Shown here: one piece after another, positions 3,488 to 34,803 of the stretch | How positions within the stretch are numbered: the first letter of the stretch is position 1 | How the letters are laid out: each line of letters starts with the position of its first letter | Source of the DNA: an uncultured Desulfobacteraceae bacterium | Lineage (GTDB): Bacteria > Desulfobacterota > Desulfobacteria > Desulfobacterales > UBA11574 | DNA: 64,000 bases | Direction of reading: 5' to 3' | NCBI GenBank assembly: GCA_964591175.1 | Contig: CAZQAF010000011.1 | Coordinates: 3,208-67,207 of the forward strand | Translations under genes and position numbers: made by a program | The notes under the pieces: generated by a model | What the model was told of the DNA's origin: nothing | Seen by the model: only the letters and a program-made list of their open reading frames with translations | Database searches by the model: none

Positions 3488-4429
3488 ATGAAATTAAAGC
3501 GCAACCATCATAAAAATGATCAAACAACAACGTTTCCCTGGTCTATATGGAGCAGCATCCCCCTGAATAAAAAAATATGGATATATCGGTTGGCTGTATT
3601 TTTAGCAATTTTTTTGACTTCGAATGCTTTATGCTATGCATCGGATCAGAAAGTCGAAAGTTTGAAACAACTGATAGAAATTTATGACCCGACAGATTGC
3701 CGGGAATGCCATGAAGAAATCTATGACCAATGGCAAAATTCCCATCATGCAAGATCCATCACAGGGATATTCATGGAACGGTACCTCAAGAAAGGTCCTT
3801 TCTCGGTGAAGAATCCCGGGCATGCCACCAAAAAGAATTTTCCCTGTTTTAAATGCCATCTTCCACAACTGGAGAAAGCAACCGATGCAGTGGCGGCAGA
3901 AATTGCCGGGGTTATTTTAAACGATGACAAAGCCACTATGAAAAAACTCAACATTTCCTGCCTGGTCTGTCACCAGGACAAAGCCGTGGTCCATGGTTTG
4001 CCGGAAAGCAATGTCATGTATGGTCCCAAGGCTAAAAAAGAATATCCTGAAAAAGAGCACATGAGGGTCAAAAAGAGTCCCTTCATGACGCAAGCTGCCA
4101 TGTGCGGCCAGTGCCACGGCTTAGGACCCATTTTTGAATTTGATTATCCCATTCAATGCGCCACGCTCTACGGAAGCTACCTGCATGCTTACATCCCGTC
4201 CGGCGGCACTCAAACCTGTCAGGAGTGCCACATGAAAAACGCCGACCATACCTGTCCACCCAACTTTAATGATAGAAAAGAGGTGTCGGAAAGACTGCGA
4301 CAAGCCCTGCCCCTCGAAGTGGAAGTATTGAGTTACCGGTTTCAGCCCTTTGAAAAAATATTTGTTTCAACCATTGTCGTTAAGACAAAGATCACCAGCA
4401 AGGCCGGACATAGAATTCCGGACGGCTGA
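3488..4429 (+). CDS. Pentahaem c-type cytochrome with N-terminal signal anchor; ends at an in-frame TGA
   Basis: Five CxxCH motifs (CRECH, CFKCH, CLVCH, CGQCH, CQECH). Hydrophobic N-terminus LAVFLAIFLTSNALCYA. AAGGGGG lies upstream of ATG 3488. Confidence 0.85.
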   Translation: MKLKRNHHKNDQTTTFPWSIWSSIPLNKKIWIYRLAVFLAIFLTSNALCYASDQKVESLKQLIEIYDPTDCRECHEEIYDQWQNSHHARSITGIFMERYLKKGPFSVKNPGHATKKNFPCFKCHLPQLEKATDAVAAEIAGVILNDDKATMKKLNISCLVCHQDKAVVHGLPESNVMYGPKAKKEYPEKEHMRVKKSPFMTQAAMCGQCHGLGPIFEFDYPIQCATLYGSYLHAYIPSGGTQTCQECHMKNADHTCPPNFNDRKEVSERLRQALPLEVEVLSYRFQPFEKIFVSTIVVKTKITSKAGHRIPDG

Positions 4430-4750
4430 CCTTCCAAGAATCGGGTGGTCCTGGAAGTGACCGCGACGGACAATAAATCAAAAGTTATATTTAAAACATC
4501 GAAGATCTACATGCCTCAGTCGACGACATCACTGGACAACACCATGGTGTACGGCCCTGACAAAAAGCTCGGAATCATCAGGGATACGAGCATTCAACCG
4601 TTTGCATCCAAAGAAGAAACATTTGAAATCAAGGTTCCTGAAAGCGTCAAAGATGTGAATGTCGCGGTCAGTCTCAGTTATCAGCTTCGGCCCGGGGATG
4701 TCTATCCGATCCAAAAGATCATAAAAAAGGTATCTGTTGGAACCCCGTAA
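4430..4750 (+). CDS. Probable C-terminal continuation of the cytochrome through UGA 4427-4429 (candidate Sec); otherwise a separate 101-aa ORF from GTG 4445
   Basis: Same reading frame as 3488-4429, with an open frame across the gap (PSKNR). No SD before GTG 4445. Hairpin 4431-4457 lies directly after the TGA. Confidence 0.5.
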   Translation, partial: PSKNRVVLEVTATDNKSKVIFKTSKIYMPQSTTSLDNTMVYGPDKKLGIIRDTSIQPFASKEETFEIKVPESVKDVNVAVSLSYQLRPGDVYPIQKIIKKVSVGTP

Positions 4751-4847
4751 TACTATATTTTTGGAATAAGGATGACGCATTATTTTTTTGTTGACATCGA
4801 TCTGTCGTTTGTGTACTACAATGTACCATAAGCAAGAGGCAATTATC

Positions 4848-4928
4848 ATGAAAACAAAATATTCAAACACATTGAACGGTGACATAATGATGTCCATGAT
4901 GCGTACCCGAGGTGCGCCCATGGATTGA
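4848..4928 (+). CDS. Candidate 26-aa Met-rich leader peptide (MKTKYSNTLNGDIMMSMMRTRGAPMD)
   Basis: ATG 4848 with AAGAGG 8 nt upstream. Six Met codons, including ATG ATG TCC ATG ATG at 4887-4901. The stop lies 23 nt before a terminator. Below the ORF-track size cutoff. Confidence 0.35.
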   Translation: MKTKYSNTLNGDIMMSMMRTRGAPMD

Positions 4929-4950
4929 TCATCTGGAATTTTTGATCGTT

Positions 4951-4993
4951 AAAGCCGTGGGTAATGAAAAAACCTGCGGCTTTTTTATTTTTT
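4951..4993 (+). terminator. Rho-independent terminator / attenuator hairpin
   Basis: Stem GCCGTGGG (4954-4961) pairs with CCTGCGGC (4973-4980), 8 bp including two G.U pairs, 11-nt loop, followed by TTTTTTATTTTTT. Confidence 0.6.
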
Positions 4994-5281
4994 AAGGAAC
5001 AATTATCGAATGTTTTTAACCCGCTTTACATCAAATATCTGCTTCATCGCCATACCTGTCCGGCTCCGCCTATGGATAATGACGGGGCTCCATTGGGAGC
5101 CGCATCATGGCAGTTTACCCTTATTTAAGTAGGAAACAAAAATATTTGCCACCAAGGCACAAAGACACGAAGGATTTTATTTTATTATTCTTTTTTAGTG
5201 TCTTGGTGTCTTTGTGGCGAGAAAAAATTGCCACAAAAAGTATAGAATTTAAAATTAAGAAACGAATAAGGAGATATACTC

Positions 5282-6469
5282 ATGGCCAAAACCATAGAAG
5301 AGATCAATGCCAAAATTCGATCCGGAAAAGTGGTGGTGTTCACCGCCGAAGAGATTATAGAAGTGGTCCGGGAAAAAGGGATCAAACAGGCTGCTCGGGA
5401 GGTGGATGTGGTGACCACCGGAACCTTCAGCCCCATGTGTTCTTCGGGCGCTTTTTTCAACATAAAACAGCAAAAACTAAAGATGAAGTTCGGCGGCGGA
5501 TTCGCCACTTTGAATGGCGTACCGGCGTATGCCGGCCTGGCAGCCGCCGACATCTACGTGGGGGCCACGGCGATTCCCGACGGCGATCCCCGCAACGGCA
5601 ACGGCCGCCCGGGAAAATTCCGGTATGGCGGCGCCCACGTCATCGAGGACCTGGTTGCCGGGAAAAAAGTCCTGCTCAAAAGCGGTGCTTATGGTACCGA
5701 TTGTTATCCGCTGAAAGCCCGGGAACAGACAATCGGACTGGAAGACATGAACGATGCATTCCTGTTCAACCCGAGAAACTGCTATCAGAACTATAATGTC
5801 GCCGTCAACCTTTCCGATAAACCTATATACACTTACATGGGAAAACTCAAACCCAAGCTGGGAAATGCATACTATTGCAGCGCCGGTCAACTGTCACCCT
5901 TGCTAAACGATCCGTATTTCCGTACCATCGGTATCGGCACCCGGGTATTTTTCTGCGGTGCAGAGGGCTATGTTGCCTGGCCCGGCACCCAGCACAATCC
6001 AACAGCGCCGAGGCTGGAAAACGGCACGCCGCAAACCCCGGCCGGAACCATTGCCCTGATCGGAGACATGAGGCAGATGAGTGGGGAATGGCTTCGGGCG
6101 GTTTCCTTTACCGGATATGGCGTAACACTGAGCGTGGCCGTGGGGGTTCCCATTCCCATTATAGACGAAGACATGTTGCGTTCGGTTTCCGTTACCGACG
6201 ACCAGCTCAAAGCGCCGGTGGTCGATTACAGTGAATATTATCCCTTGGGCCAAGGGGAAGCAAAACTCGGGGAGGTCACCTATCAGGCGCTGAAATCCGG
6301 AAGTATCCGCATCAAAGACCAAAAGGTGCCGACCGGATCTTTTTCCAGCTATGCTTTGGCCCGAAAGGTGGCCCATCATCTCAAACAGGTCATTGAAGAC
6401 GGCGATTTTTTGCTGACGCAATTCCAGGCGCCGCTCCCGGGTGCTGCAACAGAAAAGGAGGCCGCATAA
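5282..6469 (+). CDS. Homocysteine biosynthesis protein, DUF39/COG1900 family (aspartate-semialdehyde sulfurtransferase-like)
   Basis: N-terminal region VVVFTAEE...VDVVTTGTFSPMCSSGAFFN is typical of COG1900. AGGAG lies before ATG 5282. Paired with a NIL-ferredoxin gene. Confidence 0.85.
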   Translation: MAKTIEEINAKIRSGKVVVFTAEEIIEVVREKGIKQAAREVDVVTTGTFSPMCSSGAFFNIKQQKLKMKFGGGFATLNGVPAYAGLAAADIYVGATAIPDGDPRNGNGRPGKFRYGGAHVIEDLVAGKKVLLKSGAYGTDCYPLKAREQTIGLEDMNDAFLFNPRNCYQNYNVAVNLSDKPIYTYMGKLKPKLGNAYYCSAGQLSPLLNDPYFRTIGIGTRVFFCGAEGYVAWPGTQHNPTAPRLENGTPQTPAGTIALIGDMRQMSGEWLRAVSFTGYGVTLSVAVGVPIPIIDEDMLRSVSVTDDQLKAPVVDYSEYYPLGQGEAKLGEVTYQALKSGSIRIKDQKVPTGSFSSYALARKVAHHLKQVIEDGDFLLTQFQAPLPGAATEKEAA

Positions 6470-6885
6470 TGAAACAGACAAAACTGGTTTTTATTTTTCC
6501 TGAAGATACCGTTGAAGAGCCGGTAACCTACAACCTGATCGCCGATTACGGCGTCCGGGTGAATATTTTGCGCGCCAGCATCGATCCCGGGAAACAAGGA
6601 CGTATGGTGGTGGAATTGGGGGGCGAGGAAATTCAGATTTCTCAAGCCCTGAACTATCTGGAAAGCCTCGGTGTAGTGGTTGCGCCGTTGGCTCAGAAGA
6701 TCCGGCACCTCGAAGACCGCTGTACCGGCTGTACGGCCTGTGTGCCCCACTGCCCGACCCGGGCGCTGGACGTGGATCGTGATTCCTGGAAAGTATCCTT
6801 TGATTCTGAAAAGTGTATTGTTTGTTTCTCCTGTCTGGAAACCTGCGTTTATCACGCCATGTCAGTGGAAGAACAGTTTGCATAG
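6469..6885 (+). CDS. NIL domain plus 2x[4Fe-4S] ferredoxin protein (partner of the DUF39 protein)
   Basis: NIL-like N-terminus (LVFIFPEDTVEEPVTYNLIADYGVRVNILRASI). Cluster motifs CTGCTACVPHCP and CIVCFSCLETC. The start overlaps the upstream stop (TAATG). Confidence 0.85.
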   Translation: MKQTKLVFIFPEDTVEEPVTYNLIADYGVRVNILRASIDPGKQGRMVVELGGEEIQISQALNYLESLGVVVAPLAQKIRHLEDRCTGCTACVPHCPTRALDVDRDSWKVSFDSEKCIVCFSCLETCVYHAMSVEEQFA

Positions 6886-23870: not shown

Positions 23871-24048
23871 CGACGAGAATGCACATTTGAATTATCAAAC
23901 TTAAATTACCCTTGATAAAATAAAGTAGATCGTATAAGCATTTAAATACGGTGATGGAGTTCACCGATTAACCGCACGCACGTGCTGATAACTCCTGCCA
24001 TGCTCAATCCTCCGGCGGGAGTCTTGATAAAGAACTACCGCACAAAAC

Positions 24049-32557: not shown

Positions 32558-32683
32558 AAAAACCCCGCCCGGTCTATCCGGATGGGGCAGAAATCTTATA
32601 ATTATACGACTTCTACCCGATTTTAGGTAGAAGTCATTAGTCTCTTAACGCTTGGTGACGATTCAGGCAGACCTCATTGCCTT
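32558..32683 (-). promoter_or_regulatory. Conserved structured 5' leader (copy 1) ending in an intrinsic terminator; candidate riboswitch/attenuator
   Basis: RNA sense: AAGGCAAUGAGGUCUGCCUGAA, then hairpin GACUUCUACC/GGUAGAAGUC, then CCCCAUCCGG-AUAGA-CCGGGCGGGG-UUUUU. A near-identical motif lies at 34618-34786. Confidence 0.5.
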
Positions 32684-32805
32684 ATATTTTTTTCAAGCCT
32701 TTAAATACGTTCTATTATTTAATGTCAAGCAAATTTCATATTCATCGCATGCCGATGGGCCTTAAACATTTTTTTAAACCATTGAGATTAACCCGGGGCT
32801 CCAGA

Positions 32806-34617: not shown

Positions 34618-34786
34618 AAAAAAAAACCCTGCACGGTTCGAATCCGGGCAGGGTTATACTCCTTTGTATCTGCAGCGAAGGGCAAAGCAGATATTGGTGA
34701 ATAACTCCTACCCGTTATAAGTAGAAGTCATCATTTCTATCCCCTTTACGCAAGATACGAAAAGTTCAGGCAGACTTCATTACCTT
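34618..34786 (-). promoter_or_regulatory. Conserved structured 5' leader (copy 2) ending in a strong intrinsic terminator
   Basis: RNA sense: AAGGUAAUGAAGUCUGCCUGAA, then GACUUCUAC/GUAGGAGUU, then CCCUGCCCGG-AUUCGAA-CCGUGCAGGG-U9. Confidence 0.5.
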
Positions 34787-34803
34787 TCGCAATATTCGTT
34801 TAG

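Follow-up and report, generated by a model that had tools for sequence, protein, structure and literature searches.

Attenuation by a translated leader peptide is the textbook way of reading out the charging of a tRNA, with established cases for Trp, His, Phe, Thr, Leu, and Ile/Val. The known controls of methionine genes are the S-adenosylmethionine (SAM) and S-adenosylhomocysteine riboswitches, T-boxes, and the regulators MetJ, MetR, SahR, and McbR. Surveys of Proteobacteria, delta-proteobacteria, and Actinobacteria describe riboswitches and protein regulators for methionine and no attenuator (PMC4239095, PMC545781, PMC1262725), and the actinobacterial one detected no RNA element at operons for methionine (PMC1262725). 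The only precedent of a Met-codon leader peptide that we found in the open-access literature, an earlier description elsewhere being possible, is the "metL" leader annotated in front of metNIQ in Streptomyces lividans TK24, for which Met-dependent attenuation was proposed (PMC8079986). Here, we analyzed a window of 64,000 nucleotides (nt) from an uncultured Desulfobacteraceae bacterium (contig CAZQAF010000011.1), in which a small Met-rich open reading frame (ORF) and an intrinsic terminator lie upstream of hcyBio, a DUF39 (COG1900) gene followed by a NIL-domain/4Fe-4S ferredoxin gene. In Desulfovibrio, genetics shows that homocysteine/methionine synthesis depends on proteins of these two kinds (PMC5764234). 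We propose, with a probability of roughly 0.7, that the leader is a ribosome-mediated transcription attenuator of the trp type, as modeled in PMC1183508, in which AUG is the regulatory codon and the charging of Met-tRNA(Met) is the signal read.

The leader ORF (4848-4928, plus strand) runs over 26 codons from an ATG at 4848 to a TGA at 4926-4928 and encodes MKTKYSNTLNGDIMMSMMRTRGAPMD. Its Shine-Dalgarno (SD) sequence, AAGAGG (4834-4839, plus strand), lies 8 nt before the ATG, and SD-like purine tracts are found 7-13 nt ahead of the leader start in most relatives. Codons 14, 15, 17, and 18 are AUG and make up the putative regulatory run AUG AUG UCC AUG AUG (4887-4901, plus strand; AUG codons at 4887-4892 and 4896-4901). 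At least four ATG within five in-frame codons occur only here on the two strands of the window, against a mean of 0.08 expected by chance from 100 first-order Markov simulations of the window. A sequence-only reading of this DNA had already drawn attention to the ORF, its AAGAGG, and its AUG run, with coordinates that all agree with the sequence, and had suggested a leader peptide with overlapping antiterminator and terminator in front of homocysteine-synthesis genes.

Three mutually exclusive helices can be drawn from the Met run to the terminator, all on the plus strand. The region 1:2 hairpin (4892-4925), the presumed anti-antiterminator and probable pause hairpin, joins GUCCAUG (4892-4898), which lies within the Met run, to CAUGGAU (4919-4925) around an inner stem GCGUACC/GGUGCGC; it is the minimum free energy fold, at -19.2 kcal/mol here and -13.8 kcal/mol on average, with 86.7% of the cells paired in an alignment of 37 sequences. 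Region 2, GCCCAUGG (4916-4923), is contained in the last codons of the ORF and would be the 5' strand of the antiterminator, with CCGUGGGU (4955-4962) as its partner. Within these strands, CCCAUGG (4917-4923) is complementary to CCGUGGG (4955-4961), which we call region 3, two G-U pairs included, and both segments are exactly where they had been placed before. The segment from region 2 to region 3, taken alone, folds as the CCCAUGG/CCGUGGG helix plus a nested hairpin in 9 of 9 representative folds, and the 2:3 helix has a mean energy of -19.9 kcal/mol over the 37 sequences. The nested spacer hairpin, UGAUCA/UGAUCG (4926-4948, arms 4926-4931/4943-4948), begins at the stop codon. Neither this hairpin nor the 1:2 pairing of the Met run had been pointed out in the sequence-only reading.

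Region 3 is at the same time the 5' arm of the intrinsic terminator (4951-4993), whose 3' arm is region 4. The stem of 12 bp (4951-4962/4972-4983) carries a 9-nt loop, just beyond the loop limit of 8 of our consensus terminator scan, which missed the hairpin for that reason, and is followed by the tail TTTTTTATTTTTT up to 4993 (U6AU6). The U-tailed terminator of the sequence-only reading is thus real, and only its extent, given as 4954-4980, was slightly too short. Across the 37 sequences, 98.5% of the cells of this 3:4 helix are paired, three pairs show compensatory changes, and the mean energy is -20.6 kcal/mol. The positions of the codons relative to these helices are those of an attenuator. 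The stop codon sits 3 nt past region 2, at its base, so that a ribosome at the stop would mask region 2 together with the 5' arm of the nested hairpin. Between the end of the run's last AUG, at 4901, and CCCAUGG there are 15 nt, a spacing that is constant in nearly all sequences; with this spacing, a ribosome stalled on the Met run would cover region 1 and leave region 2 free, given the footprint sizes generally known for ribosomes. All the sequence-level features that define attenuators of the trp, his, and phe type are present, namely, the ORF, the codon cluster, the terminator, the antiterminator, the 1:2 helix, and the geometry. A perfect 10-nt complement between 4894-4903 and 5101-5110, considered as a long-range pairing, was rejected, as it is not conserved in relatives.

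A lone 7-bp complement such as CCCAUGG/CCGUGGG is not significant in a single sequence, and its weight comes from conservation in relatives. A protein-based scan with one genome per species yielded 80 hcyBio loci, and 12 of the 22 closest (at least 73% identity, Desulfobacterales-type metagenome-assembled genomes [MAGs]) have the leader and the terminator upstream of hcyBio (L001-L007, L009, L010, L012, L016, and L020). The shared arrangement consists of a small ORF, a Met cluster, the tail RGAPM[D/G]-stop, and then AAAGCCGUGGG...CCCRCGGC followed by a U-run. These 12 loci were chosen by the enzyme alone and hence form an unbiased sample. A second scan, by DNA pattern on metagenome contigs, required GAGGTGCGCCCATGG and GCCGTGGG, so that the invariance of those words there is uninformative; it provided 32 more loci, among them that of the window's own organism (L084), and all 29 with enough downstream sequence (29/29) encode HcyBio, usually followed by the NIL-ferredoxin. 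The gene upstream of the leader varies: a multiheme cytochrome here, Usp in L001, L003, and L005, a sigma factor in L007, and an outer-membrane receptor gene on the other strand in L010. As far as these loci tell, the leader is an element that travels with hcyBio, to which its linkage is exclusive. The distance from the terminator to the hcyBio start ranges from 17 to 321 nt among relatives, which eases the earlier reservation that about 290 nt separate the two here; the shortest is that of L016, in which the U-run runs into the hcyBio ribosome-binding site and ends 17 nt before the ATG.

More distant hcyBio loci (Omnitrophota, Chloroflexota, Bacillota, and others) do not have the leader arrangement. 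A search for Met-rich small ORFs upstream of distant hcyBio genes (Omnitrophota, Chloroflexota, and others) returned a few ORFs starting with MMM and no terminator pattern, and searches of the window and of 72 sources with the covariance model of the leader (R1) detected no additional copy. In a Clostridiales MAG (L066), a SAM-I riboswitch (2820-2918, 87.3 bits) is located about 80 nt upstream of hcyBio. Its presence at the same position indicates that control of the Met pathway sits at this place and that lineages differ in the sensor used. In locus L019 (2687-2897), some 100 nt ahead of hcyBio, a divergent small ORF, MTLQARLDHFRIESMVMPLDKSPRA-stop, is combined with a strong terminator, GCCAUGGGC...GCCCAUGGC-U9. 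This pair may be a distant analogue of the Met leader, but the covariance model did not recover it, and it was left out of our counts.

The leader ORFs of the relatives, about 38 distinct sequences from about nine diverged lineages, are 23-30 codons long, mostly 26, and nearly all run in frame from ATG to stop; the start of L104 is GTG, and one sequence is cut by a contig end. Over the first 10-16 residues, different lineages have unrelated sequences (MKTKYSNTLNGDI, MTTNDPSISNVYS, MNDQFNAHTGF, and MKSFQPIHVRGEF), giving a consensus with a variable N terminus, a core M-M-[S/P]-M-M, and a tail R-G-A-P-M-[D/G]-stop. The start codon, the frame, and the stop are nonetheless kept, despite these unrelated N termini and despite in-frame indels. 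The arrangement of the Met-rich core itself differs by lineage (MMSMM, MMPMM, MIMPMM, MPVSMMYRM, or MSMMMSM), and in the 12 loci from protein homology, Met accounts for 61 of the 302 noninitiator residues (20%), with four to six per leader. Moreover, three of the four AUGs of the run fall outside the 1:2 helix and are still at least 90% conserved in the 37-sequence alignment. A variable peptide in a constant frame, with a Met cluster that persists while being rearranged, is the pattern expected of regulatory codons, unlike what is expected of a fixed RNA motif or of a functional protein. The leader peptide matched no family in NCBIfam or Pfam.

The helices bear the marks of constraint as well. 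CCCATGG is invariant in the 12 protein-homology loci (12/12), which show two variants of region 3 against six of region 4, the changes in region 4 all being wobble compatible. In column 101 of the 37-sequence alignment, for instance, A and G are found 21 and 15 times. A nearly fixed region 3 facing a varying region 4 is expected if region 3 serves two partners. The spacer hairpin is kept in spite of a sequence that differs by lineage (UCCUU/AAGGA in L006, GGUUGA/UCGACC in L016, and UUGAUGU/ACAUCAA in L101). The alignment of orthologous upstream regions had been proposed beforehand as a test of the attenuator idea, with conservation of a Met-rich ORF and of the pairing segments as the outcome to look for. 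Its result bears the idea out, since the ORF, its Met cluster and stop, the terminator, and both pairings are kept upstream of hcyBio in at least nine diverged lineages, whatever the neighboring gene.

In the mechanism that we envision, transcription would begin at the candidate promoter with its conserved TTGACA, and a ribosome, presumably coupled to the polymerase, would load on the 26-codon leader. When Met-tRNA(Met) is plentiful, this ribosome would reach the UGA at 4926, where it would hide both region 2 (4916-4923) and the spacer hairpin's 5' arm; region 3 would then pair with region 4, and RNA polymerase would terminate in the U-run at about 4985-4993. When Met-tRNA(Met) is scarce, the ribosome would stall at 4887-4901, covering region 1 and ending about 5-15 nt short of region 2, which would be free to pair with region 3 around the nested hairpin and so block the terminator. 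The predicted direction of regulation is read-through upon shortage, into a second small ORF (ORF2, see below), hcyBio, and the NIL-ferredoxin gene, resulting in more homocysteine and methionine synthesis. If no ribosome loads, the 1:2 hairpin would form and transcription would terminate.

The transcript evidence, which consists of assembled contigs from salt-marsh metatranscriptomes, is weakly supportive overall and partly discordant. RNA contigs of a relative match locus L083 at 95-99% identity, and one of them (X35, L083 12051-11521) covers the leader, the terminator, ORF2, and 133 nt of hcyBio; the others are X36 (11964-11772) and X37 (12077-11787). In the window's organism, contigs covering 5013-5447 (X29), 5039-5823 (X25), and 5083-5557 (X26) continue through the operon. 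The start of the first at 5013 brings the 5' untranslated region (UTR) to within 20 nt of the terminator. A k-mer search of the RNA runs for the leader of the window's organism found none. Standard libraries would not retain terminated leader RNAs as short as those predicted here (about 165 nt).

Several points weigh against the proposed attenuator. No RNA contig of the window's organism covers 4830-4993 in seven metatranscriptomes, and the 5' ends at 5013, 5039, and 5083 suggest that most of its hcyBio mRNA may start, or be processed, just past the terminator. Two of the spanning contigs of L083 extend 29-55 nt upstream of the -35 element, so that DNA carry-over or an upstream promoter is possible. 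A promoter-like site, TTGCCA-16-TAAAAT (5228-5255), precedes hcyBio, although the RNA contigs start well upstream of it. As to the helices, the 2:3 pairs of the antiterminator are invariant, making covariation uninformative for the key helix, and in 25 metagenome sequences this invariance was imposed by the search pattern. The strict conservation of the tail RGAPM[D/G]-stop exceeds the needs of a classical attenuator. Finally, Met shortage also limits the charging of the initiator tRNA and could reduce translation of the leader, which would favor termination, even if elongation through four tandem Met codons would remain more sensitive to the shortage.

Three other explanations can be set against the attenuator. 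The peptide itself might be the sensor: the tail R-G-A-P-M-D, with its R-x-x-P core and perhaps helped by the Met-rich segment inside the exit tunnel, would arrest the ribosome over region 2, either constitutively, to enforce termination, or in a TnaC-like response to a metabolite, for instance Met or SAM. RAPP-like cores are known arrest motifs, often near the C terminus of small ORFs, and they regulate a variety of genes downstream (PMC12992588, PMC10951233). The tail is kept in 11 of the 12 protein-homology loci and its Arg codon changes synonymously between CGA and AGA in several lineages. However, RGAP is not among the arrest cores tested, nor does the string appear in PMC12992588, and every tail codon lies in the 1:2 or the 2:3 helix, so that nucleotide constraints explain most of the conservation. 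Since, in addition, the tail of L016 reads RVMPMD and the shifting Met arrangement suits the counting of codons better than a fixed peptide, we regard a nascent-peptide sensor as unlikely. A switch independent of ribosomes (a riboswitch or a leader that binds a tRNA or a protein), with an incidental ORF, would fit the very high nucleotide conservation from the Met run to region 3 and the SAM riboswitch found at the same position in other lineages, yet we consider it very improbable. The start, frame, and stop survive unrelated N termini and in-frame indels, the stop falls exactly at the base of region 2, and the three simple helices form no conserved junction resembling a ligand pocket. Neither this region of the window nor 18 related loci matched any Rfam family, of Met/SAM RNAs or otherwise, at the gathering score; at E values up to 10, only chance matches appeared over 4700-5320 (mir-1954 and an L10 leader whose 20.9 bits fall short of the threshold of 44), and a scan of 38 related loci revealed nothing relevant except the Clostridiales SAM riboswitch.

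The leader could also be a small gene or small RNA in its own right, ended by its own terminator, in which case hcyBio would be transcribed from a separate start past 4993 without control in cis. The RNA contigs of the window's organism, all of which begin at 5013-5083 and none of which covers the leader, would be explained in this way, and ORF2, with its own SD sequence and start right past the terminator, as well as the promoter-like site at 5228-5255, could belong to such a separate unit. What makes this explanation a poor candidate is the strict linkage to hcyBio while the upstream neighbors change, together with L016, in which no room is left for a promoter between terminator and gene, and with the lack of a conserved -10 element past the terminator in the relatives. 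Three mutually exclusive helices would also be purposeless in a plain small gene, and the spanning RNA contigs of a relative speak against separate units. We thus favor the Met-codon attenuator over these three explanations.

The genes that would be controlled had been taken for homocysteine-synthesis genes, an assignment that holds. hcyBio (5282-6469, plus strand), the first of them, matches PF01837 (HcyBio) with an E value of 1.5e-143 and has the SD sequence AAGGAG at 5268-5273; the NIL-domain/4Fe-4S ferredoxin gene (6469-6885, plus strand) matches PF09383 and Fer4 families and overlaps the hcyBio stop. On the promoter side, the -35-like TTGACA (4791-4796, plus strand) is the candidate leader promoter, and about 30 distinct loci have TTGAC[A/T] in the corresponding position. 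It had been objected that this candidate has no good -10 element at proper spacing: the TTGACA proves to be conserved, and the expected place of the -10, between TTGACA and the leader start, is occupied by a conserved palindromic box, TACTACAATGTACCAT (TACTACAATGTAYCAT; 4814-4829, no strand assigned), with the core TACAATGTA and the family consensus C[TC]ACA[AT]TGT[AG]G. The box is also found upstream of hcyBio in loci without a Met leader (L011, L014, L017, and L018). It may be regarded, from its sequence and position, as a candidate operator for a transcription factor of hcyBio, as an unusual -10 element, or as both. The box occurs in L086, L096, and L111 as well.

Directly past the terminator lies ORF2 (5010-5132, plus strand), which has 40 codons and an SD-like AAGGAA (4994-4999); across loci it starts 10-25 nt after the U-run. 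It contains an invariant 11-mer, UAUGGAUAAUG (5071-5081, plus strand), which reads Leu-Trp-Ile(AUA)-Met in the ORF2 frame and is followed by a hairpin, GGCUCC-AUUG-GGAGCC (5086-5101, plus strand; 82% paired, with compensatory changes). An ATG-started ORF2 of 28-57 codons spans the 11-mer in 37 of the 39 distinct loci, and its frame, unlike the other two, is open in all 39 (39/39) over at least 14 codons ahead of the 11-mer and at least 7 beyond it. No wobble position of the 11-mer varies, which implies a constraint at the nucleotide level besides coding. In L012, the ORF2 stop falls in the loop of the hairpin, and the hairpin itself is kept. Of the 22 closest genome loci, 17 contain the 11-mer and hairpin, including six that have no Met leader (one of these being cut short upstream), so the ORF2 element appears older and more widespread than the leader; conversely, L016 has the leader and no ORF2. 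ORF2 had no match in Rfam or NCBIfam, a protein-database search with ORF2 only returned nothing, and a search with the ORF2 alignment gave six weak matches, apparently to the same ORF in similar loci. Pairing of the 11-mer with a downstream UUAUCC or with the start region of hcyBio reaches z values down to -3.4 in some lineages, with a mean z of -0.86, and covariation is impossible for this invariant word. The 11-mer was rejected as an extended -10 promoter, having no TG-hexamer spacer and no conserved -35. It is conceivable, although we regard it as a doubtful extension, that the 5' region is a two-stage sensor, in which the Met-tRNA attenuator (its RGAPMD tail maybe acting as a RAPP-like arrest motif over region 2) would be followed, on the read-through RNA, by ORF2 as a new nascent-peptide or RNA sensor for another signal of the pathway, for instance SAM, homocysteine, or sulfide.

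The L011 lineage shows an in-frame fusion of ORF2 to an apparent C-terminal remnant of a MOSC-domain gene (proteins P0003-P0006), and an intact MOSC-like ORF immediately precedes hcyBio in L013, L021, and L022. The 5' UTR further contains, as an insertion, an imperfect inverted repeat that plays no part in the proposed mechanism (5148-5218, no strand assigned), with 24-nt arms GCCACCAAGGCACAAAGACAC.../...GTGTCTTGGTGTCTTTGTGGC. The repeat is absent from L003 and replaced by a different inverted repeat element in L004 and L005, and fragments of it occur with other flanks in unrelated RNA contigs; it is probably a dispersed repeat resembling miniature inverted-repeat transposable elements or repetitive extragenic palindromes. 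Upstream of the leader, the multiheme cytochrome c gene (3488-4750) has an in-frame TGA at 4427-4429, beyond which protein similarity continues. This TGA is kept in L094 (92% nucleotide identity) and in L106 (74%, with synonymous changes nearby), a hairpin CUUCCA...UGGAAG follows it at about 4431-4457, and the codon likely specifies selenocysteine, in the context GHRIPDG-U-PSKNR. Elsewhere in the window, three fluoride riboswitches (RF01734) lie within 11 kb, at 23941-24004 (plus strand, 54.5 bits), 32621-32690 (minus strand, 41.2 bits), and 34715-34793 (minus strand, 35.3 bits).

If the proposed attenuator is real, it would add to this mode of control an amino acid deemed to lack it or to suit it poorly, the initiator tRNA sharing the same synthetase. 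It would also offer a first way into the regulation of the DUF39/NIL-ferredoxin pathway, discovered recently, of homocysteine synthesis in relatives of sulfate reducers, and it would mean that this pathway responds to the methionine supply. With about 170 nt, the Met leader is a compact and testable part, and the same leader region contains a second conserved element, ORF2.

Among the systems that can be compared with it, the "metL" leader of S. lividans is likewise a short ORF with Met codons upstream of a methionine-related operon; it differs in that its peptide, MSTTSDRTPATEATTTPGARCMCRRMCAF, has two internal Met interleaved with Cys, in that it is leaderless, has no Rho-independent terminator, and precedes a transporter, and in that no comparative support accompanies it in PMC8079986. 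The Cys-codon leaders at actinobacterial cys and cbs operons are also leader peptides for a sulfur amino acid predicted by comparative genomics, but no terminator or antiterminator hairpins were found for them, and dependence on Rho was proposed (PMC1262725). Rho-dependent control as in tnaC, in which the leader ribosome covers or uncovers a loading site for Rho and no intrinsic terminator takes part, does not match the present locus either, which has a conserved, canonical intrinsic terminator. The SAM-I (S-box) riboswitch of L066 (2820-2918) shares the position, the logic of termination and antitermination, and the genes, whereas its structured aptamer senses SAM directly, with no translation step. 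With the RAPP-like arrest peptides (RAGP of SecM, RAPP of ApdA/ApdP, and RGPP), the leader has in common a small upstream ORF and an Arg-small-small-Pro sequence near the C terminus, but RGAP followed by M-D-stop is outside the cores R-[A/G/S/D]-P-P and R-A-G-P, which have their Pro in the A site, and here the ORF is combined with metabolic genes and a terminator switch. The closest likeness is to the trpL, hisL, pheL, thrL, leuL, and ilvL attenuators, in which a short ORF led by an SD sequence carries a cluster of codons for the end product, 1:2, 2:3, and 3:4 helices compete, an intrinsic terminator precedes the biosynthetic genes, and the stop codon lets the ribosome mask region 2. The leader described here departs from them in its regulatory codon, AUG, in its DUF39/NIL-ferredoxin genes, and in its hosts, uncultured Desulfobacterales, as well as in a region 2 that lies inside the ORF, a hairpin nested in the antiterminator, a conserved C-terminal tail, and a second small ORF past the terminator. 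The comparison of sequences thus supports, in the DUF39 pathway of Desulfobacterales, a putative Met-specific attenuator that would extend the known trp-type mechanism.

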